Positions 2,251 to 49,021 of a DNA stretch of 64,000 nt are shown one piece after another. A program made the translations under genes and the position numbers. The DNA comes from Candidatus Bilamarchaeum sp. Its GTDB lineage: Archaea; Micrarchaeota; Micrarchaeia; Anstonellales; Bilamarchaeaceae. Numbering within the stretch: position 1 is the stretch's first letter; every line of letters begins with the position of its first letter. The notes beneath the pieces are model-generated. The model did no database searches. It was not told where the DNA came from and was given only the letters and a program-made list of their open reading frames with translations. The stretch lies in assembly GCA_035455205.1 (NCBI GenBank), contig DATIFM010000008.1:13146-77145 (forward strand), read 5' to 3'.

Positions 2251-4368
2251 CTACTCCTGCGCCGGCTCGTTGCTTACTACCGTCCAGAGGGACTTGTGGA
2301 GGACAATCCGGAGGCCGGTTGCCGGGAGCGAGAATGCCGCCCAGTATTCTTCGAGGGCAGGGGTGAAAAAGGCGATTTCCTGCGGATTGAGGCCCCGGCG
2401 CTCGACGCGGAGCGACGCGTCGAAGAGCGGCTGGAGGCGCCGCATGGCTTTAGTAACCGAGTCGGGGTCCGAAGCCCTCAGCCGCGAGCCTTCGAGGATT
2501 TTTTTGATTCTCGGGAGGCTGAGGGGGTTGAGGCGTATCTCCTTGAGCGCGGATTCCGTTATCAGGCCCTCCTCCTTTAGCTGGGCGCAGGCGGCAATCA
2601 CGTCGCGCCCCTGCGGCGGCCTCTTTATGAGCGAGTCCTTCACGTCGCTCCGGACGTAAATCCTTCCGCCAACCATCCCCGTCCCGAGGAAATCCCCGGC
2701 GATTGGCGTGTCCACGTCCTCCCGGCCGAGGTGGCCGAGGCCGAGGACAAGGCCGGTACCGCCGCTTGCCATCTTCATGAAATACTGGCCCACGGTCTCG
2801 CCTATCACGACGAATGGCTCGTGGCCGTCCTTCGGGCGCAGCTGCTGGCACCCCCTGGAGTCGAGGGAGCCGCGGTGGAAAAGATACTCGCCCTGGAACG
2901 CGTTCGCGTGCATCATGCCCGCGTTAGCATGGCAGACGACCTTGCGGACGCTCGAGGCTTCGAGGCAGTTGTCCTGCATCGGACCGACGATTTCAAGGGT
3001 CCCGTCGCCGTCGGTGTAGCTCGCGCCGTGGCTTCCGAGGGTGCCCGCGTATATGCGGTGGCCGGTTATGCGCTCGCCCGCAAACTGGTTGGGCTCACCG
3101 CGGAGGCGGCCTTCGGCCGTCTTCCGGTCCATCGAAGGGGCGGAGATGAAAGGGCGCCTGCTCCGCCCGGACTCGATTATCCCGGAGCGCGAGGACGCCC
3201 AGAGGAACTTTCCGGGCTCCGGCGAATACGCCTCGACCTTGGGCGAGAATATGTCGAGGCCGGTCGCGGCCTCGATCTGGCGGAGCTCGCTTGCCACGAA
3301 AACCCTGCCGTCCTCGTGGTCTATGACTATCTGGAGTGGGCGGAATGTGTTCCGGTCCCTGAACGCAAGGAGCTGGACCTCGTCCTCGTAGGTAATCAGG
3401 GCGATGCTCGAGACCGGACCGTCCAGGCCGAAGCCGCGGTAGCTTTTGGCGATGGCATCGAGTCTCGCGCGCTCCGCGCTCCCCCGGAGGAGCTGGGTGA
3501 TGTGGTTGTCGAAGGCCGGGACGAGCGCGGAAAGTATTCCGGAAATCGAAAGCCCCGGCTCGGACATCAGCCCGGTCTTGAGCATGGTGTAAATCATTCC
3601 GGCGATGACCTCGCTGTCCGTTCCCACCCAGCTTTTCCTGAGCTTCGCGATGAACGAGTCCACGCCGTTCTTGGTGGAGTTGTGGTACAGCTCGGCAAGC
3701 CTCGACTCGCAGGCCGCGAGGTTCGCGCGGTAGCTCGTCACATCGCCGTTGTGCACGATTCCGACGTTCCCGAACCCGAAGGGATGGGCGCGGGCGACCT
3801 TGGGCTCTGAGCCCGTGGGATAGCGCGTGTGGGCTATCATGCCGGTAGCCGGCATCTCCCCAAATCCGTAGATGCGCTCCTGCTCCGAGAGCGATTCGAG
3901 GCCCTTGTAGAGCGTGAGGCCGTGGCCGAACGAGATTATCCGGCCGTCATCCACTCCGACCTGCGAATTCGCGCGTATCACGGCCGAAAGCAGGTGGATG
4001 TATTCTGCCTCGGTCTTGGCCTGGTAAATCTGCCCCTGTCCCTTGTTTATTTCCCCGACGCGGACGCCTTCCTCTTCGAGGATGCCGCGGATGCGCTCCG
4101 CGAAGACGTCGGTGCGCGCCCATATGCACAGGTTCTTGCCCCTCTGGCCGCGCTCGGCGTGGGCGAGCATAACTCCGTTGCCGTAGGTGCCCCCGCGCGC
4201 GGACTCGGCCTCGCAAATCCCGCGGACCGCGCAGTTTCCCGTGAGGGGCTTCTCGCCGAATGAGAGAGCGCCGAAGATGGCGCAGTTCGAGGAATCCTTC
4301 TGCGCCTTGCGCACCGGCTCAAGCGCCAATGTAATCAACTCCGAGAAGGGACGCCGTCCGGGCATCAA
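2251..4368 (-). CDS. glutamate synthase subunit: class-II glutamine amidotransferase domain fused to the GXGXG (GltS C-terminal) domain
   Basis: N-terminal Ntn-type amidotransferase motifs (CAIFGAL, IAHTRYPTGS, IVHNGDVTSYRANL) and C-terminal glycine-rich beta-helix motif (GGTGLVLGLGHLG...GDFLGTGMVGGRIYV). Overlaps the upstream gene by about 50 nt. Confidence 0.75.
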   Translation of the reverse strand: MMPGRRPFSELITLALEPVRKAQKDSSNCAIFGALSFGEKPLTGNCAVRGICEAESARGGTYGNGVMLAHAERGQRGKNLCIWARTDVFAERIRGILEEEGVRVGEINKGQGQIYQAKTEAEYIHLLSAVIRANSQVGVDDGRIISFGHGLTLYKGLESLSEQERIYGFGEMPATGMIAHTRYPTGSEPKVARAHPFGFGNVGIVHNGDVTSYRANLAACESRLAELYHNSTKNGVDSFIAKLRKSWVGTDSEVIAGMIYTMLKTGLMSEPGLSISGILSALVPAFDNHITQLLRGSAERARLDAIAKSYRGFGLDGPVSSIALITYEDEVQLLAFRDRNTFRPLQIVIDHEDGRVFVASELRQIEAATGLDIFSPKVEAYSPEPGKFLWASSRSGIIESGRSRRPFISAPSMDRKTAEGRLRGEPNQFAGERITGHRIYAGTLGSHGASYTDGDGTLEIVGPMQDNCLEASSVRKVVCHANAGMMHANAFQGEYLFHRGSLDSRGCQQLRPKDGHEPFVVIGETVGQYFMKMASGGTGLVLGLGHLGREDVDTPIAGDFLGTGMVGGRIYVRSDVKDSLIKRPPQGRDVIAACAQLKEEGLITESALKEIRLNPLSLPRIKKILEGSRLRASDPDSVTKAMRRLQPLFDASLRVERRGLNPQEIAFFTPALEEYWAAFSLPATGLRIVLHKSLWTVVSNEPAQE

Positions 4369-6616
4369 GGTAGTGGCTCGCGCGCAGTATGTTCCGGTTG
4401 CCGGTCACAGAGCTTATCATCGAAAGCCCGGACGCGCCCATGTGCTGCCTGAGCTCGGCCGCGAGGCCCGATAGGAGGTTGAGCTGGCGCTGGTATGTCG
4501 GCTCGGTTATCAGCTTCGACGGGTCGCAGACGACCGCGTCCGCACCGAGGCACGCGAGGGCATAGATGTCCCTGGAGCTCCGGATGGCGGCGCGGGCGAT
4601 GAGCACGGTTTTCCTGCGCAGTATCATGCCGTCATGTATCGCGAGGCTGAGCGCATCGTCTGCCTGGCTCACGGCCACATCGAGCGGGATTTTTCCGGCC
4701 ATCCCCATAGCGCCTGCGATTATGAGCCCGTCCACGCCGGCGCGGGCGAGCGAGACCGAATCCTCGCGGATGCTTTCCGAGGCTTCGATTGACGCGTAGA
4801 CGGGCGTGGATGGGGATAGCATCTTAATCTCCCGGATGTTCTCCCTCGTCGCGTCCGCGACCGAAAGCAGAACGCCCGACGATTCGCGGATGTGGTAAAT
4901 CTTGGCCGGGATTTCCGCCGCGCCCACGGGGATTATCCTCCGCTTGGGGTCCTCGGCCGTGCTGCTGCAAAGTATTATCGTGTTCTTCTCGCGCGCGAGC
5001 TTCGTCGTCTCCTCCCCGTTCCCGTCCTCGAGTATGAGGGGCATGCTGATGTTGACGCTCCCGGGCAGCCTCACCATCGTCTCTATCACCTCTCGGTGGG
5101 AGTCGTATGCCGGACCCACGACGGTCCTCCCCTCGTGGTCGAGGAGGTCGAGGTTCGAGTACGGCGCGTCGAGGTCGGTCGTGCGCCCCATGCTCGAAAC
5201 CGATGGCTTGCCGGTCTTTGCGAGGCTCTCAAGCAGGTCTGAATAGTATTTCTGGGGGGATTTTGCCGGAGCCGGATAGGCCGGGGCGCTGGAAGGGACG
5301 CCGAGCATCGACGCGAGCTCGCGCGGCATCTTTTCCGCATGCAAAAGCTCGCTGTGGCCGACCGCATCGGATGCGGTTGCGAACCCGAAAGTGCGCAGGC
5401 AGTCCCCGAGCTCCATGCGGTATGCCCTGAAGAAGCGGTCGAGGGCGTCAGTTGCCCAGGCGAGGTCGAGCTCGCGCTTGCGCCAGCCGCCTTCCATGGT
5501 CGGTATCGCGGTCAGCGCGGTCGGGCAGTCCTTGTGGCACATGTTAACGACCTTGCACCCGAGGCCCACGAGCGACGCGGTGCCGAGGAGCACGCCGTCT
5601 GCGCCAAGGAGCATGAGCTTGAACGCCTTTGATGGAAGGTCGACGCGGCCTGCGGCGATTATCCTGAATTTCTCGCGCATGCCGATGCGTTCTATCTGCC
5701 TGTGCGCCAGCCTGACGGCGAGCTCGATTTCCATGCCGATGTGGTCGCGGTGGACATTGGGCGCGGCGCCGGTCCCTCCGCCCCTTCCGTCTATTATTAT
5801 GCCGTCCGCGCCTGCCCTCGCGGCCCCGGCCGCGACGTGCTCGATGGAGTGCGACGCCCCGGCCTTCACGAGGACGGGTTTCCCGGTCACGTGCTTCACG
5901 GCCTGCACGAGTGCGCGCATCTCCTCGATTGAGAACACCCTGCTCGCGTCGGAAAGTATGTCCACGCCTCCCGGCATTCCCCTTATTCGCCGTATCGTTT
6001 CCGTGACTTTGGCCTTGGGAAGGTGGCCGCCCATCCCGATTTTGGCCGACTGGCTCATCTTTATCGAGACGACGCAGGCCTGCCTGAGCATGTCCGGGTT
6101 CACGCCGAAGAGCCCGGTCGCGACCTGCACCATGATGTTCGGGTTGCCGATTATCGGGGGAGCGACTCCGCCCTCGCCAACGCCGAAGATGAAGTCGTTC
6201 ATTTTCGCCGCCTCTGCGACGGCCTGGTGCACTTCCTGCTGCGTCGCGCCGAATGAGTATTCCCCGAAAAGGATTGGAGCCGAGTAAGTGCGGCCCCCGA
6301 GCGGGAAGCCGAGGTCAGATGAGGCGAGCGCCGGGGCAGAGGGGGGCTCAAGGACCAGCATGTCCGAGACAGGGTAAGGAGGCGAATCGAAGCGGGGGTT
6401 GAAGCTCACGAGCTCGTCGAGCGAGAACTGGGACTGCCCGGTCGCGCCCATCCGCTGGAGCCGGTCGATTATCCCCTCGGTGAAATATTTCCTTCCGCCC
6501 GTCTCCCGGTTCCGCGGCGGCGTCTTGGCAAGGTAGGCTCCCATCAGCCTCGGGCCCCTCGAAGTAGGGTTACCCCTGTCCGGAGAGACTTCATCCACCT
6601 GCCTAGACAAAAACAA
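4319..6616 (-). CDS. glutamate synthase FMN-binding (GltB domain 2-like) subunit with an extra C-terminal TIM-barrel-like domain
   Basis: FMN-domain hallmarks GVGEGGVAPP and IDGRGGGTGAAP; C-terminal about 330 aa is glycine-rich and barrel-like but unassigned. Confidence 0.7.
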   Translation of the reverse strand: MFLSRQVDEVSPDRGNPTSRGPRLMGAYLAKTPPRNRETGGRKYFTEGIIDRLQRMGATGQSQFSLDELVSFNPRFDSPPYPVSDMLVLEPPSAPALASSDLGFPLGGRTYSAPILFGEYSFGATQQEVHQAVAEAAKMNDFIFGVGEGGVAPPIIGNPNIMVQVATGLFGVNPDMLRQACVVSIKMSQSAKIGMGGHLPKAKVTETIRRIRGMPGGVDILSDASRVFSIEEMRALVQAVKHVTGKPVLVKAGASHSIEHVAAGAARAGADGIIIDGRGGGTGAAPNVHRDHIGMEIELAVRLAHRQIERIGMREKFRIIAAGRVDLPSKAFKLMLLGADGVLLGTASLVGLGCKVVNMCHKDCPTALTAIPTMEGGWRKRELDLAWATDALDRFFRAYRMELGDCLRTFGFATASDAVGHSELLHAEKMPRELASMLGVPSSAPAYPAPAKSPQKYYSDLLESLAKTGKPSVSSMGRTTDLDAPYSNLDLLDHEGRTVVGPAYDSHREVIETMVRLPGSVNISMPLILEDGNGEETTKLAREKNTIILCSSTAEDPKRRIIPVGAAEIPAKIYHIRESSGVLLSVADATRENIREIKMLSPSTPVYASIEASESIREDSVSLARAGVDGLIIAGAMGMAGKIPLDVAVSQADDALSLAIHDGMILRRKTVLIARAAIRSSRDIYALACLGADAVVCDPSKLITEPTYQRQLNLLSGLAAELRQHMGASGLSMISSVTGNRNILRASHYLDARTASLLGVDYIGA

Positions 6617-32761: not shown

Positions 32762-32829
32762 CGCCAACCCGGAGGGGTTGGCCAAATAGAGGTCAGTGTC
32801 AACCCCAGCGGGGTTGACAAACTGACAGA

Positions 32830-33006
32830 TGCTCCTGCCGGGATTTGAACCCGGGTCCTCAGAGTTCTTCCGCCTTTTGGGAAAAGGCGGCCCAAAACTG
32901 ATTATTGGCGAACCCTCCGAGGGTTCGCAAACAGATAGTTTTTGGGCGCTTTTTCCAAAAAAGCGCTGAGAGTCTGATATCCTTGACCGGGCTAGACTAC
33001 AGGAGC
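32830..33006 (-). tRNA. tRNA-Glu (anticodon CUC, tentative) with a 102-nt intron in the anticodon loop (exons about 32967..33006 and 32830..32864)
   Basis: Sense strand GCTCCTGTAGTCTAGCCCGGTCAAGGATATCAGACTCTCA [intron] CTCTGAGGACCCGGGTTCAAATCCCGGCAGGAGCA. Acceptor stem 7 bp, T-arm CCGGG-TTCAAAT-CCCGG, anticodon stem TCAGA/TCTGA. The D-arm is irregular, so isotype and exact intron borders are tentative. TATA-like TTTAAAAA about 35 nt upstream. Confidence 0.65.
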
Positions 33007-37025: not shown

Positions 37026-38483
37026 ATGGATTTCAAGAGGCCTAATTTCACGAAAGTTTCGGATTACATCTGGGAAATAGGGACGGACTACAAGGAAGGG
37101 ATGAGGGTCCCGGCTAGGATTTACGCGAGCGAGTCAATCCTGAAGCAGATGGATTCGCACGTATACGACCAGATAACGAACGTCGCCACTTTGCCGGGCA
37201 TAGTGAAGCACGCATTGTGCATGCCGGACGGGCACAGCGGCTACGGCTTCCCCATCGGGGGCGTTGCAGCCATGGACGCGACCGAGGGCGTGATCAGCCC
37301 GGGAGGGATAGGCTTCGACATCAACTGCGGCATGAGGCTCATACTCACGAACCTGACACTGAAGGACGTCCAGCCGCATCTGAAGCAGCTTGTGAACAGG
37401 CTTTTCGAGCGCGTGCCAGCCGGCGTCGGGAGCAAGGGGTTCGTGAAGCTGGACGCCAACACGTTCCGCAGGGCGATAGAGGAAGGCGCCGAGTGGTGCG
37501 TGAAAGAGGGGTACGGCTGGAGCGACGACCTGGAAGTCACCGAGCTCAAGGGCCGCTTCGAGGGCGCGGACGAGAAGAAGGTCACGAACAGGGCTGTCGA
37601 AAGGGGGAAGGACCAGATAGGAACGCTCGGCTCGGGGAACCACTACCTCGAGATTCAGCATGTGCGGCCGGAGAACCTGATTGACAGGGCGCTCGCGAAG
37701 AAATGGGGCCTTTTCGAGGACCAGATAGTGATAATGTTCCACTGCGGCTCGCGGGGCTTCGGCCACCAGGTCGCGACAGACTACCTCAACGTTTTCCTGA
37801 ACGTCATGGAAAGCAAATACAAGATTAAGATACTCGACAGGGAGCTTGCATGCGCGCCGTTCAACTCGCCGGAGGGCCAGGACTATTTCTCGGCGATGAA
37901 GTGCGGCGTGAACATGAGCTTTGCCAACAGGCAGACCATCGTCCACCGCCTGCGGGAGGTGTTCTCGGAAGTCTTCAGGACCGACGCGGAAAAACTGGGC
38001 ATGAGGCAGGTCTACGATGTCGCCCACAACCGGGCGTCGCTGGAAAAGCACCTCGTGGATGGAGCATGGCGCGAAGTGATAGTCCACAGGAAGGGAGCCA
38101 CGGCGGCATACGGCCCCGGGAGCGAATACCTGATGGAGAGATACCGGGAGGACGGCCAGCCGGTCATAATCGGCGGGAGCATGGAAACGGGCTCCTATTT
38201 GCTTGCCGGGACGAAGGAAGGCGCCGCCACATGGTACACCACCGCGCACGGGAGCGGCAGGACGATGTCCCGTACGGAGGCCAAGAGGAGATGGAAGGGC
38301 GAGACGCTCCAGAAGGACATGGAGAAGAAGGGCATACTTGTCAAGAGCGTATCCTATGCCGGCCTCGCCGAGGAGGCCGGAGGGGCGTACAAGGACATAG
38401 ACGAAGTCATAAACGCCACGCACGAGGCGGGCATCTCGAGAAAAGTCGCCAAGCTGATTCCGATAGGGAACGTCAAGGGCTAG
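37026..38483 (+). CDS. rtcB: RNA-splicing ligase RtcB (tRNA exon ligase)
   Basis: RtcB hallmark segments GGIGFDINCGMRL, GSGNHYLEIQ, HCGSRGFGHQ, AHNRA, AHGSGR. Confidence 0.92.
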   Translation: MDFKRPNFTKVSDYIWEIGTDYKEGMRVPARIYASESILKQMDSHVYDQITNVATLPGIVKHALCMPDGHSGYGFPIGGVAAMDATEGVISPGGIGFDINCGMRLILTNLTLKDVQPHLKQLVNRLFERVPAGVGSKGFVKLDANTFRRAIEEGAEWCVKEGYGWSDDLEVTELKGRFEGADEKKVTNRAVERGKDQIGTLGSGNHYLEIQHVRPENLIDRALAKKWGLFEDQIVIMFHCGSRGFGHQVATDYLNVFLNVMESKYKIKILDRELACAPFNSPEGQDYFSAMKCGVNMSFANRQTIVHRLREVFSEVFRTDAEKLGMRQVYDVAHNRASLEKHLVDGAWREVIVHRKGATAAYGPGSEYLMERYREDGQPVIIGGSMETGSYLLAGTKEGAATWYTTAHGSGRTMSRTEAKRRWKGETLQKDMEKKGILVKSVSYAGLAEEAGGAYKDIDEVINATHEAGISRKVAKLIPIGNVKG

Positions 38484-40326: not shown

Positions 40327-40464
40327 TTTCGCGCGAAAGAAAATGCGGATGAACCGGAGCCCCGATGATTTGGATAATACCCAAGCTTATGAGGGGCCGA
40401 GGGGACTGGTTTTTGTCCACTGAAAAACCCATTCCGGGTTTTTGTGGACATCAGGGAGATACTG

Positions 40465-40896
40465 ATGCCTTTCAAATTCATAGACGGGGTTGCCATCGCG
40501 GACGTCGCCTTCGAAGCGAGGGGAAAGACCATCGAGGCGATGTTCATAAGCGCGGGGGAAGCCCTCATGAACACGCAGGTGAAGGACCTCAGGTCCATCG
40601 GGGCGAAAGTGGAGAAAAGGTTCTCGCTCGAGAACAAGGACGAGGAGAGGCTCCTTCACGACTTTCTTCAGGAGCTGATTTTCCTCAAGGATGCGGAACT
40701 GCTACTTTTCAGGGAATACGAGGTTGAGATAGCAAAAAAAGAGGGCGGCTTCAGGCTCAGTGCGAGCCTCAGGGGCGAGCAAATCGACCAGAAAAAGCAC
40801 GAGCTCCTCGTGGACGTGAAAGCGGTCAGCTGGCACATGTTCAAGATTGAAAAGACGAAAACAGGCTGGAAGTGCTTCGTCATCCTCGACGTATAA
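40465..40896 (+). CDS. archease (RtcB activator)
   Basis: MPFKFIDGVAIADVAFEARG N-terminus and overall about 140-aa archease layout. Confidence 0.85.
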   Translation: MPFKFIDGVAIADVAFEARGKTIEAMFISAGEALMNTQVKDLRSIGAKVEKRFSLENKDEERLLHDFLQELIFLKDAELLLFREYEVEIAKKEGGFRLSASLRGEQIDQKKHELLVDVKAVSWHMFKIEKTKTGWKCFVILDV

Positions 40897-43991: not shown

Positions 43992-45467
43992 ATGGTGAGG
44001 GAAATGGCAAGGAAGTACAGGATGCTTATAGGCGGCGAGTGGGTAACCGGGGAAAGCTGGTTCGACAGCATAAACCCGGCAAGCGAGGAGCACCTCGCGA
44101 GCTTCCCGAGCGCGACGAAGGATGACCTGAACAGGGCGGTCGACGCGGCGGAGGATGCCTTCCCGAAGTGGGCCATGACGCCCCCTCCGGCCCGGGGAAG
44201 GATTCTTTTGAAGGCGGCCACGCTCCTGCGGGAAAGGAAGGAGAAGCTGGGGCGGCTCGTCGCGACCGAAATGGGGAAGGTGATGAGCGAGGCGCTCGGG
44301 GACGTCCAGGAGGCGATAGACTGCTTCGAGTATTTCGCCGGGGAGGGAAGAAGGCTTTTCGGGAACACGACTACGAGCGAGCTCAGGAGAAAATTCTGCA
44401 TGACGGTACGGAGGCCGGTCGGGGTCGTCGGCCTCATCACCCCGTGGAACTTCCCGACGGCAATACCGGCATGGAAGCTCGGACCCGCCCTCGTGTGCGG
44501 GAACACGGTCGTATTCAAGCCCAGCTCGGACACCCCGCTTTGCGCGTATGAGATTGTCAGGATACTCGGGGAGGCAGGAGTCCCGCCGGGGGTCGTGAAT
44601 TTCGTCACCGGGAGCGCAAGCACCGTGGGCGAGGGGATGGTGAAGCACCACAAGATACAGGGAATCTCGTTCACGGGCTCGAGGGCAACGGGGGAGTGGA
44701 TAACCAAAAACGCCGGCCTCAAGAAGGTCGGGCTCGAACTCGGCGGCAAGAACCCGATAATAGTGATGGACGATGCGGACCTCGCGCTCGCCGTCGACGG
44801 AATCATCTGGGGCGCGTTCGGCACCACGGGGCAGAGGTGCACTGCGGCAAGCCGCGTCATAGCAGAGGAGAGCATCAAGGACAGGCTCCTCGAGATGCTC
44901 GTCGCGAGGGCGCAAAAGCTCAGGCTCGGCCCGGGAACCGAGAAGACTACGGACGTCGGCCCGCTGATAAACGCCGCGGCGCTCGAGAAGACCGCGAGAT
45001 ATGTCGAGATAGGGCAGGACGAAGGCGCGAAGCTCGCCTGCGGCGGGAAGAAAAGGGGCGGCAAGGGGTTCTTCTACGTGCCGACGATATTCGACGAAGC
45101 CGAGAAGGACATGAGGATTGCCAAGGAGGAGATTTTCGGTCCGGTCCTTTCCGTCCTGGAGGCGGACGGCCTCGAAGAGGCGGTGGAGATCGCGAACTCG
45201 GTCGAGTACGGCCTCAGCTCGGCGATATACACGAGGGACATCTCGAACGCGTTCCGGGCAATCGAGGGGATAGAGGCCGGGATTACATACGTGAATGCGA
45301 GCACTATCGGCGCGGAGGTCCATCTTCCGTTCGGGGGGGTTAAGGGGACCGGCCACACGAGGGAAGCCGGCATAATGGGCATAGACGAGTTCTCGAACGT
45401 GAAGAGCGTGTATGTCGACTATTCCGGCAGGCTGCAGAAGGCGCAGATTGACGTTAAGGAGGATTAG
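43992..45467 (+). CDS. NAD(P)-dependent aldehyde dehydrogenase
   Basis: ELGGKNP glutamate motif and catalytic Cys motif FGTTGQRCTAASR; GSxxxG cofactor region FTGSRATG. Confidence 0.9.
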   Translation: MVREMARKYRMLIGGEWVTGESWFDSINPASEEHLASFPSATKDDLNRAVDAAEDAFPKWAMTPPPARGRILLKAATLLRERKEKLGRLVATEMGKVMSEALGDVQEAIDCFEYFAGEGRRLFGNTTTSELRRKFCMTVRRPVGVVGLITPWNFPTAIPAWKLGPALVCGNTVVFKPSSDTPLCAYEIVRILGEAGVPPGVVNFVTGSASTVGEGMVKHHKIQGISFTGSRATGEWITKNAGLKKVGLELGGKNPIIVMDDADLALAVDGIIWGAFGTTGQRCTAASRVIAEESIKDRLLEMLVARAQKLRLGPGTEKTTDVGPLINAAALEKTARYVEIGQDEGAKLACGGKKRGGKGFFYVPTIFDEAEKDMRIAKEEIFGPVLSVLEADGLEEAVEIANSVEYGLSSAIYTRDISNAFRAIEGIEAGITYVNASTIGAEVHLPFGGVKGTGHTREAGIMGIDEFSNVKSVYVDYSGRLQKAQIDVKED

Positions 45468-45468
45468 C

Positions 45469-45996
45469 ATGGTTGCAAAAAAGCTCTACCTGCTCCAGAT
45501 CGAGCAGGACGGGATTCCGGACGACGTTTACCATTTCCTGCCCGAAGGCGAGCAGAAGATGCTCGTCGAGAAAGGCGGCAGGTTCTATTTGAGGGATGAG
45601 CACCGCAAAAAGCTCAAGGTCGTGCTGACCGGAGGGGCCTTCGACGTCCTGCACATCGGGCACCTCTTCACGCTCAGCGAAGCGAAGAAGTACGGGGACG
45701 TGCTCGTCGTCGCCGTAGCCAAGGACGAGCACATAAAGAAGAAGGGCAGGGAGCCCATACACAGCCTTGAATACAGGAAGATGATGGTCGGGGCGATGAA
45801 GATGGTCGACATGGCCATCGGCGGCTTCGAGGACCCGAAAAAGATGCTGAAGCTCGTCCAGCCGCAGGTAATTGTCTATGGCTACGACCAGAAGGAGTTC
45901 CTGAAGCCCGAAGGCGTGCAGGTCGTGAAGCTCGAGCGCAAGATAGACGACTCGAAGTTCAAGAGCGGGAAGATACTGGAAAGCCTCGGCCTCTAG
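45469..45996 (+). CDS. cytidylyltransferase-family nucleotidyltransferase (RibL/FAD synthetase-like) with N-terminal extension
   Basis: AGGAGGA RBS before ATG 45469; (H/T)xGH motif VLTGGAFDVLHIGH. Confidence 0.55.
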   Translation: MVAKKLYLLQIEQDGIPDDVYHFLPEGEQKMLVEKGGRFYLRDEHRKKLKVVLTGGAFDVLHIGHLFTLSEAKKYGDVLVVAVAKDEHIKKKGREPIHSLEYRKMMVGAMKMVDMAIGGFEDPKKMLKLVQPQVIVYGYDQKEFLKPEGVQVVKLERKIDDSKFKSGKILESLGL

Positions 45997-46579: not shown

Positions 46580-46704
46580 GCCTCGGTAGCTCAGTCGGTA
46601 GAGCGGCTGACTGTTATCTTTTGGGAATGAACAGCCCGTTTTGGGGCGCCTTTTCCCAAAAGGCGCACATCAGCAGGCCGGAAGTTCAAATCTTCCCCGG
46701 GGCG
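46580..46704 (+). tRNA. tRNA-Asn (anticodon GUU) with a 52-nt canonical-position intron (46617..46668)
   Basis: GCCTCGGTAGCTCAGTCGGTAGAGCGGCTGACTGTTA [intron] ATCAGCAGGCCGGAAGTTCAAATCTTCCCCGGGGCG. Clean cloverleaf: 7-bp acceptor, D-arm GCTC/GAGC, anticodon stem GCTGA/TCAGC, T-arm GGAAG-TTCAAAT-CTTCC; intron between positions 37 and 38. Confidence 0.8.
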
Positions 46705-46753
46705 TTTTGGTTTACTGGCCAACCCCGCAGGTTGGCAGAATTTGATTACTGGG

Positions 46754-48622: not shown

Positions 48623-49021
48623 ATGAAAAAACGCATGGCGGCAGAAAAACCCGCAACGAACACTGCAAAGGCCGCCACCAGCAGGAGTGCCGAAGGCGCG
48701 GCGGTTTTCGGCTCCGCCCTGCCCCCTGACAAGGCCGCCGAACTCGTAAGCGACCTCGAATCGGACGAACTCTCGAGGAGCCTTGTGGCTGCGGCTGAAA
48801 TAATCGAGAACTACAGGGCAGTGGCAGGAGCGGCCGCGGTAAACCCAGAATTGAACATGACAAGAATCAACGTGATGCTCAATGATATTTTTGAGAAAAA
48901 TATCTCGAAGATCGTCGAGATTCTCTCCGAACAGGGGCTCAGGTTTTTGGCCGAATCGTCGGTAATCAGCTCCATGGCGGTAAAAGATGCCGCGAAAAAG
49001 CGGCTGATGTCGGCACAATAG
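48623..49021 (+). CDS. hypothetical protein (about 132 aa)
   Basis: ORF only. Confidence 0.3.
   Translation: MKKRMAAEKPATNTAKAATSRSAEGAAVFGSALPPDKAAELVSDLESDELSRSLVAAAEIIENYRAVAGAAAVNPELNMTRINVMLNDIFEKNISKIVEILSEQGLRFLAESSVISSMAVKDAAKKRLMSAQ

Follow-up and report, generated by a model that had tools for sequence, protein, structure and literature searches.

Gain of protein-spliced introns by archaeal and eukaryotic tRNA genes is an open question, and the similarity of introns in the Thermoproteales is so far the sole clear case. There, similar introns in different tRNAs have been read as large-scale tRNA intron transposition (Fujishima et al. 2010, Mol Biol Evol 27:2233, as related in PMC4090602). 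The tRNA genes of Micrarchaeum are highly disrupted, and the epsilon2 EndA of this organism cuts relaxed bulge-helix-bulge (BHB) motifs (PMC3239211). Candidatus Bilamarchaeum is placed within the Bilamarchaeaceae of the Anstonellales (PMC8561730). We analysed a 64,000-nt stretch from a genome of this genus (contig DATIFM010000008.1 of assembly GCA_035455205.1, positions 13,146 to 77,145; hereafter the window), in which an original prediction had noted a hairpin motif shared by the introns of tRNA-Asn and tRNA-Glu. Our results indicate that this motif is probably the terminal cassette of a family of protein-spliced BHB tRNA introns that is widespread in the Micrarchaeota and mobile, having spread across tRNA genes as well as across positions within a tRNA.

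The two genes, their introns and the parts of the cassette are as follows (CM, covariance model; MFE, minimum free energy).

46580-46704, + strand: tRNA-Asn(GTT) gene, exons 46580-46616 and 46669-46704 (Rfam RF00005, 59 bits with the insert still present; aragorn -i; acceptor/T-arm finder)
46617-46668, + strand: BHB intron of 52 nt at position 37/38, TCTTTTGGGAATGAACAGCCCGTTTTGGGGCGCCTTTTCCCAAAAGGCGCAC
46618-46627, + strand: 5' strand CTTTTGGGAA of helix h', partner TTCCCAAAAG at 46653-46662 (MFE folds, alignment A1, geometry table)
46638-46645, + strand: cassette flank GTTTTGGG, near-invariant in alignment A1
46646-46666, + strand: cassette hairpin GCGCC-TTTT-CCC-AAAA-GGCGC, 9 bp with a 3-nt loop (hairpin scan; CM R1, 52.9 bits; covariation)
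32830-33006, - strand: tRNA-Glu(CTC) gene, exons 33006-32967 and 32864-32830 (hand parse and acceptor/T-arm finder)
32865-32966, - strand: BHB intron of 102 nt at position 37/38, with inverted-repeat arms of about 29 nt and a central hairpin
32870-32898, - strand: 3' arm cassette, GTTTTGGG-CCGCC-TTTT-CCC-AAAA-GGCGG (CM R1, 52.8 bits)
32938-32966, - strand: 5' arm, an inverted and diverged cassette, on the tRNA strand GCGC-TTTTT-TGG-AAAAA-GCGC-CCAAAAAC (pattern match with 2-3 mismatches, perfect 9-bp hairpin)
32908-32928, - strand: central hairpin of the Glu intron, GCGAACCCT-CGG-AGGGTTCGC (hairpin scan)

Intron boundaries were deduced from tRNA structure. For tRNA-Asn, aragorn -i reported Asn(gtt) with a 52-nt intron, in agreement with the hand parse, and the splice sites are the sole choice that gives back a 7-nt anticodon loop, CTGTTAA. 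The interval 46617-46668 marked in the original prediction is exactly this intron. The tRNA-Glu(CTC) gene is overlooked by ARAGORN at default settings and by the Rfam tRNA model; with -i, ARAGORN takes it for Pyl(cta). Default ARAGORN detected no tRNA anywhere in the window; both genes were detected with -i. An Rfam scan around the Glu gene returned only chance-level matches at E up to 10. The sole match in the window at the gathering score was the tRNA-Asn, and no Rfam family other than tRNA reached the gathering threshold. Because standard tools missed or miscalled the tRNA-Glu, tRNA annotation gains a practical fix from this analysis.

The two quoted copies of the motif were recovered as described, GTTTTGGGGCGCCTTTTCCCAAAAGGCGC at 46638-46666 (+ strand) and GTTTTGGGCCGCCTTTTCCCAAAAGGCGG at 32870-32898 (- strand), and share the form GTTTTGGG-SCGCC-TTTT-CCC-AAAA-GGCGS. 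The corresponding degenerate 29-mer, GTTTTGGGSCGCCTTTTCCCAAAAGGCGS, has two matches in the window against 0.00 expected from 100 dinucleotide-preserving shuffles. The outermost stem pair is swapped between the copies, G-C in Asn and C-G in Glu, as had been claimed. Two features had been overlooked. A third copy, inverted and diverged, occupies the 5' end of the Glu intron (32938-32966; 36.5 bits with the CM, E=1.7e-6, as a + strand match), and the 5' half of the Asn intron likewise belongs to the conserved family, the 5' segment of h' (46618-46627) being kept throughout it in alignment A1. With the third copy, the Glu intron consists of two inverted-repeat arms around a central hairpin. Its first 29 nt (32966-32938) read GCGCTTTTTTGGAAAAAGCGCCCAAAAAC, and when the 5' arm was compared by hand, position by position, with the reverse-complemented 3' arm, 23/29 were identical. 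The MFE fold of this intron is a long rod (-54 kcal/mol), and a homologue of its central hairpin was found in the tRNA-Asn introns of L133 and L134 (L numbers designate fetched loci).

Perfect hairpins of the form xxAACCC-N3-5-GGGTTxx also lie 3' of both tRNA genes, at 32763-32782, 32797-32819 and 46718-46736. They resemble the central hairpins of the Glu intron (32908-32928) and of the L133 and L134 Asn introns, and may represent a second family of tRNA-locus palindromes. Runs of 5-7 T were observed within tRNA introns of the window (32955-32960, T6 on the tRNA strand), L133, L134 and L034. Such runs are transcription terminators in most studied archaea and must therefore be read through here.

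The original prediction had suggested a search of other genomes and a covariance model; both were carried out. One genome per prokaryotic species was searched with the pattern TTTTGGG-N5-TTTTCCCAAAA, which leaves the stem unconstrained. At least 118 loci were obtained, mostly unrelated bacterial matches. Among the matches listed, fully complementary GC-rich stems occurred only in metagenome-assembled genomes (MAGs) of Micrarchaeota. These stems, GCGCC, CCGCC or GCGC(T), came from no fewer than 11 loci, each inside a tRNA gene, and the genomes span 38-64% GC. Across that range of GC content the 29-nt cassette is 97-100% identical among tRNA introns of many Micrarchaeota MAGs. A stricter pattern added 12 loci from metagenomes and gave 0 matches in viral contigs. 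MAFFT was inconsistent on cassettes that differ in T/A-run length (alignment A2), and CM R1 was therefore built from the 29-nt class (A3, eight variants), the rest being realigned by Infernal. In 256 kb comprising the window and the fetched loci, most of which had been recruited by search patterns in which the inner cassette was constant, R1 had 42 matches (E<0.005); three are in the 64-kb window, all within the two introns. Part of the 42 were individually assigned to a fully resolved tRNA gene. All matches examined fall within a tRNA gene or within 0-2 nt of the end of a mature tRNA, and none of those checked in the 256 kb was away from tRNA genes. Thus the motif recurs in other genomes, widespread and conserved.

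One cassette, at 1973-2003 of L046, was first taken as intergenic and is apparently within a multi-intron tRNA-Cys(GCA) on the minus strand, where the tools detected none; this case suggests that these MAGs harbour further disrupted tRNA genes that have escaped detection. A hairpin with a similar style of T-run and A-run, GATATTTTT-GAG-AAAAATATC, stands at 48884-48904 of the window, within an open reading frame and below the CM threshold, and is probably due to chance.

The cassette consists of a 21-nt palindromic hairpin and the 8-nt flank GTTTTGGG (CCCAAAAC in mirror copies). The hairpin follows a fixed plan: an outer stem of 4-6 bp, T4-6, a 3-nt loop, A4-6 and the complementary stem. In 3'-end copies the layout is flank, hairpin, exon, and in 5'-end copies it is the mirror image, exon, hairpin, CCCAAAAC, so that the exon side is always taken by the hairpin. 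Some introns have a cassette at the 3' end (window Asn) and some at the 5' end, and in others both ends carry one, arranged as inverted repeats (window Glu); the introns that bear cassettes are located in D-, anticodon- and T-loops. The 3'-type introns at 37/38 are homologous over their full length, N-CTTTTTGGGAAA-TAGCAACCC-G-cassette (alignment A1, 13 members), and come from Asn (window), Thr(CGT), Thr(TGT), Phe, Lys(TTT), Lys(CTT), Arg(TCT), Ser(GGA) and Gly(TCC). The 5' type occurs at 37/38 of Glu(TTC), Asp, Ser(TGA), Gly(CCC) and Cys, and in the D-loops of Arg, Ala and Thr tRNAs. The two-arm type includes the introns of the window Glu gene and of the Asn genes of L133 and L134, and the D- and T-loop introns of L034, whose tRNA-Ala has three cassette introns in one gene. 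The loop differs by end, GGG in 5'-end and CCC in 3'-end copies, and CCT, ACT and ATT also occur.

At about 1310-1400 of L125, a T-loop intron has its 5' cassette hairpin (GCACC-T5-AGG-A4 ... GGTGC-ACCAAAAAC) interrupted by about 60 nt that hold two other perfect palindromes, which looks like a nested insertion. Cassettes also adjoin mature tRNA ends outside introns (L136 3766-3796; L129 797-824 and 2358-2386; L109 506-528). In three 3' trailers a 5'-type cassette begins 1-2 nt past the discriminator base, and at one tRNA a 3'-type hairpin ends exactly at +1; these ends therefore resemble exon-intron junctions.

A natural series of introns at one orthologous site was provided by tRNA-Asn(GTT). 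In seven relatives, as in the window, this gene lies downstream of an FAD-synthase-like gene (window 45412-45996) whose protein is 67-84% identical to that of the window. The window protein matches an NCBI protein of a Candidatus Bilamarchaeum sp. MAG at 100% identity, and its next relatives carry the label Micrarchaeota. The tRNA-Asn exons are 69-73/73 identical in the five of eight orthologues that have no D-loop intron. The introns at 37/38 are of the 3' type in the window, L132 and L137, two-arm in L133 and L134, and of the 5' type in L135 and L136; L131 has an unrelated 32-nt intron that makes a perfect strict BHB and has no cassette. Of the introns compared, four share 80-88% identity with introns in other tRNAs, two of these being D-loop introns. 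Identity is 83% between the Asn intron of L133 and the Glu intron of the window, and the 37/38 introns of L135 and L136 are 86% and 88% identical to D-loop introns of tRNA-Ala in L121 and of tRNA-Thr in L128, respectively. The window Asn intron is 81% identical to a Phe intron (L127), 80% identical to a Thr intron (L126) and 29% identical to its own orthologue in L131. The last six intron nucleotides are fitted to the site, GAGC+AA for the D-stem and GCGC, GCGG or ACGA plus 2 nt for the Asn loop. Because near-identical orthologous exons carry unlike introns that match the introns of other tRNAs, these sequence comparisons indicate that introns of the cassette family have passed from one tRNA gene to another and from one tRNA position to another. 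The claim of a module common to unrelated tRNAs, mobile or functionally selected, thus extends to at least 12 isoacceptors in many Micrarchaeota MAGs and to interchangeable introns in orthologous tRNA-Asn genes.

Two further observations were made at tRNA-Asn orthologues. In Candidatus Bilamarchaeum dharawalense (L132) the gene, at 5130-5254, is directly followed by a gene of the Phage_integrase family (5320-6492). In L134 (about 3837-3915) and L135 (about 2971-3050) a second copy of the final 12 or so nucleotides of tRNA-Asn, ATCCCCGGGGCG, lies about 70 nt downstream, with TTTTTGTT after it; an acceptor-stem intron or an integration scar could account for this repeat.

We then compared the introns with the strict 3-4-3 BHB geometry. 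With splicing at 37/38, the window Asn intron has h 5/5, H 3/4 and an h' of 10 contiguous bp. Helix H pairs CTGT with GCGC (one Watson-Crick pair, two G-U pairs and one C-C mismatch), and the bulges are TA|T and AC|A, the second (B2) being made of 46667-46668 (AC) and A46669. The final 4 nt of the hairpin (46663-46666, GCGC) also serve as the H strand. The window Glu intron has h 5/5, H 3/4 and h' 11/12. With H at 3/4 in both, the BHB motif is slightly relaxed rather than strict; in the 5'-type introns of L090, L093 and L129 helix H is 4/4. The distal partner of h' in 5'-type introns varies with the stem type (GGCGC, GGCGG or GTTT), and this tracking supports h' comparatively as well.

These data are consistent with a model in which, in the pre-tRNA, the exon-proximal strand of the cassette would pair with the opposite end of the intron to form h', and the terminal bases of the cassette would provide the H strand and a bulge, so that both splice sites would be presented in a BHB motif. 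From established knowledge of archaeal tRNA splicing, we infer that EndA would cut this motif and that RtcB and archease would ligate the exons. The genes for the latter two proteins are encoded in the window, as the original prediction had said, and were identified by Pfam matches:

37026-38483, + strand: RtcB tRNA-splicing ligase (PF01139, E=5.9e-168)
40444-40896, + strand: archease, the RtcB activator (PF01951, E=3.5e-37)

The two genes are about 2 kb apart and are located between the two intron-bearing tRNA genes. An exact look-up of the RtcB sequence gave no recorded match. An EndA gene did not turn up in the window, where no systematic search for it was made.

The hairpin of the cassette required separate evaluation, as the exon-proximal strand has three mutually exclusive pairings: the local hairpin, the BHB fold and the flank. 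In the 13 related 37/38 introns all nine hairpin pairs are always paired, and three show double-sided changes, which bears out the compensatory change first noticed between the two window copies. Among 20 distinct cassette variants pairing of the hairpin is complete (100%), with covariation at all five outer pairs and no unpaired cell; this alignment is model-fitted and so biased toward structure, the stem nevertheless having been free in the genome search. Orthologous Thr(CGT) introns have GCGCC/GGCGC versus CCGCC/GGCGG, and other stems include GTGCC/GGCAC (L126), GCGAC/GTCGC (L132) and TCCAGC/GCTGGA (L040). The isolated module folds to the local hairpin (-11.4 kcal/mol). The extended BHB fold is nevertheless the MFE structure in most family members, better by 4-10 kcal/mol in RNAfold, be it in the pre-tRNA arms or in the excised linear or circular intron. 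Thus the motif common to the two tRNA introns is real, and its hairpin is genuine as a conserved, covarying pairing. It is not the predicted ground state, and the same bases also build h' and H of the BHB. With these reservations, the core claims of the original prediction are supported, with more evidence than it had to draw on. An alternative returned by RNAalifold combines the local hairpin with pairing of the flank GGG to C32 (C32-G), U33 (U33.G) and N34 (N34.G); as modelled, it would give a generic helix H with the hairpin seated in bulge B2.

Pairing of the flank GTTTTGGG with CCCAAAA showed no base-for-base compensation. The length of the flank T-run equals that of the hairpin A-run in 24 of 28 variants, including all five whose hairpin T- and A-runs are unequal. 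Several other readings of the cassette were considered and rejected by reasoning. A U.A-U triple helix of flank and stem fails because the third strand reaches only GC pairs; an H-type pseudoknot of the 3-nt loop fails on geometry or sequence; the hairpins at IS200/IS605-type ends have the same orientation, whereas the cassettes are mirror images; and in a bacterial-type intrinsic terminator the T-run trails the hairpin instead of preceding it. A reading of GUUUUGGG as an Sm site was also rejected, as there was no evidence for it.

The following points weigh against a spliced and mobile intron family marked by this cassette. First, under strict geometry the introns of Thr, Phe and Ser form just 1-2 of the 4 pairs of helix H; with H weak in several members, the strict BHB may not be the only form of the substrate. 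By analogy, such helices would be acceptable to an enzyme of broad specificity like the Micrarchaeum epsilon2 EndA. Second, the conserved local hairpin is unneeded for h' and competes with it, and its covariation is not explained by the BHB model. Third, the match between flank T-run and hairpin A-run is likewise left unexplained by that model. The internal palindrome and matched flank may have been kept as an insulator or competitor strand that controls folding, as a requirement for spreading, or as a protein site. Fourth, the confinement of the cassette to Micrarchaeota holds among the matches listed and is not proven. Fifth, no mobility machinery (reverse transcriptase, transposase) was identified.

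An extension of the intron-family reading, which we put forward tentatively as a possibility, is that the cassette is a portable, self-contained and bistable intron end. In a closed state its exon-proximal strand would be paired within the hairpin, and in an open, BHB-forming state it would be paired to the opposite end of the intron; the 8-nt flank would be a further possible partner. The cassette would allow excision from any tRNA loop and would be recognised by a mechanism of intron gain. If true, this would be the first recognisable transposon-like terminus of archaeal protein-spliced introns.

Compatible with the intron-family reading, and in our view rather doubtful, is the proposal that the cassette is the terminal inverted repeat of a palindromic DNA element, or of one akin to a miniature inverted-repeat transposable element (MITE), which inserts in tRNA genes and survives there through BHB splicing; single-arm introns would then be decayed copies. 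The two-arm layout of the window Glu, L133, L134 and L034 introns would fit such an element, as would the use of both orientations with the hairpin always outward, the L125 hairpin split by about 60 nt with two other palindromes, the cassettes just beyond mature tRNA ends in L136, L129 and L109, and the rapid turnover of introns at one orthologous site. Its difficulty is that, among the matches checked in the 256 kb, no copies were seen off tRNA genes, that viral contigs gave 0 matches, and that no transposase was identified. Furthermore, inspection of the window Glu and L133 Asn junctions revealed no target-site duplication beyond anticodon-stem repeats, and simple DNA insertion leaves unexplained why the last 6 nt of the intron are fitted to the local exon.

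It is unlikely that the local hairpin is itself the functional unit, as a sequence-specific protein site or the core of a stable, possibly circular, intron RNA for which the intron is a mere delivery route. Complete pairing with covarying outer pairs speaks for this, as do the choice of the hairpin by RNAalifold, its formation by the isolated module and the 97-100% identity of the cassette at 38-64% GC, which exceeds that of the rest of the intron (D-loop introns of L056 versus L128). Against it, the extended fold is favoured by 4-10 kcal/mol both in the pre-tRNA and once the intron has been excised, whether linear or circular. The loop varies (GGG, CCC, CCT, ACT, ATT), so loop recognition is unlikely; there is no known candidate protein and no Rfam match.

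The last two alternatives are both most improbable. Chance resemblance, or convergence from the need for a helix beside the splice sites, might be entertained because BHB introns require h' and T/A runs are of low complexity, and it is refuted by the shuffle expectation of 0.00, CM E-values of about 1e-10, identical 29-mers in many genomes and 80-88% homology in the remainder of the introns; the L131 orthologue, which makes a perfect BHB with no cassette, indicates that splicing does not impose the cassette. A guide RNA (C/D-box or H/ACA) encoded as in the Haloferax tRNA-Trp intron, prompted by the ACA that follows the hairpin in the window Asn intron and by the occurrence of intron-encoded C/D guides in archaea, finds no Rfam snoRNA or sRNA match at the gathering score (chance-level ones alone at E up to 10). 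Boxes C (RUGAUGA) and D (CUGA) are absent, A1 shows no conserved box motif, and other members of A1 have GAT, AAG or CAG in place of the ACA.

The preferred reading, a spliced intron family with a terminal cassette, bears on intron gain in several ways. It points to a second, phylogenetically distant lineage in which introns have spread, here with a sharply defined terminal signature. The cassette family, together with the natural replacement series at one orthologous site, offers a handle on the gain of tRNA introns in archaea. The cassette also provides sequences to be mutated in splicing assays, and its CM can be used for a census of intron gain and loss across the DPANN.

In the searchable literature, with many subscription papers lying outside it, we found no description of a conserved terminal intron module or of these sequences. 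The closest case within the phylum is ARMAN-2 (Candidatus Micrarchaeum acidiphilum; PMC3239211, PMC3488258, PMC5829648), which likewise has introns in D-, anticodon- and T-loops; a gene can hold several of them, and their BHB motifs are in part strict and in part relaxed. Those papers cover the intron positions and the enzyme, and shared intron sequence is not among their topics. By analogy with the canonical hBHBh' intron at 37/38, the window introns agree in position, in the 3-nt bulges, in the flanking h and h', and presumably in ligation by RtcB and archease. They differ in an H of 3/4 and in an h'/H strand that lies inside a competing self-complementary hairpin.

In the split tRNA halves of Nanoarchaeum equitans, GC-rich complementary leader and trailer segments pair and present the BHB to EndA. 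Those segments join two transcripts and are unique to each tRNA, whereas the cassette segments are within one intron and have one conserved sequence. Like MITEs, the family is made of short non-coding elements that have terminal inverted repeats, occur in many near-identical copies within a genome, show presence/absence polymorphism and include apparent nested insertions. Unlike in MITEs, each arm of the cassette introns is itself palindromic, the outermost nucleotides are adapted to the exon, and neither target-site duplications at the two junctions inspected nor copies off tRNA genes among the matches checked were found. The closest likeness is to the Thermoproteales families as they are related in PMC4090602: orthologous genes of unlike intron content, in organisms with a splicing endonuclease of broad specificity. 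As in those transposed families, similar introns recur here across isoacceptors and at different positions, and orthologues differ in intron content. The family described here differs in belonging to the Micrarchaeota, within the DPANN and not the Crenarchaeota, and in carrying a 29-nt palindromic end-cassette, set in mirror orientation at either or both ends of the intron.

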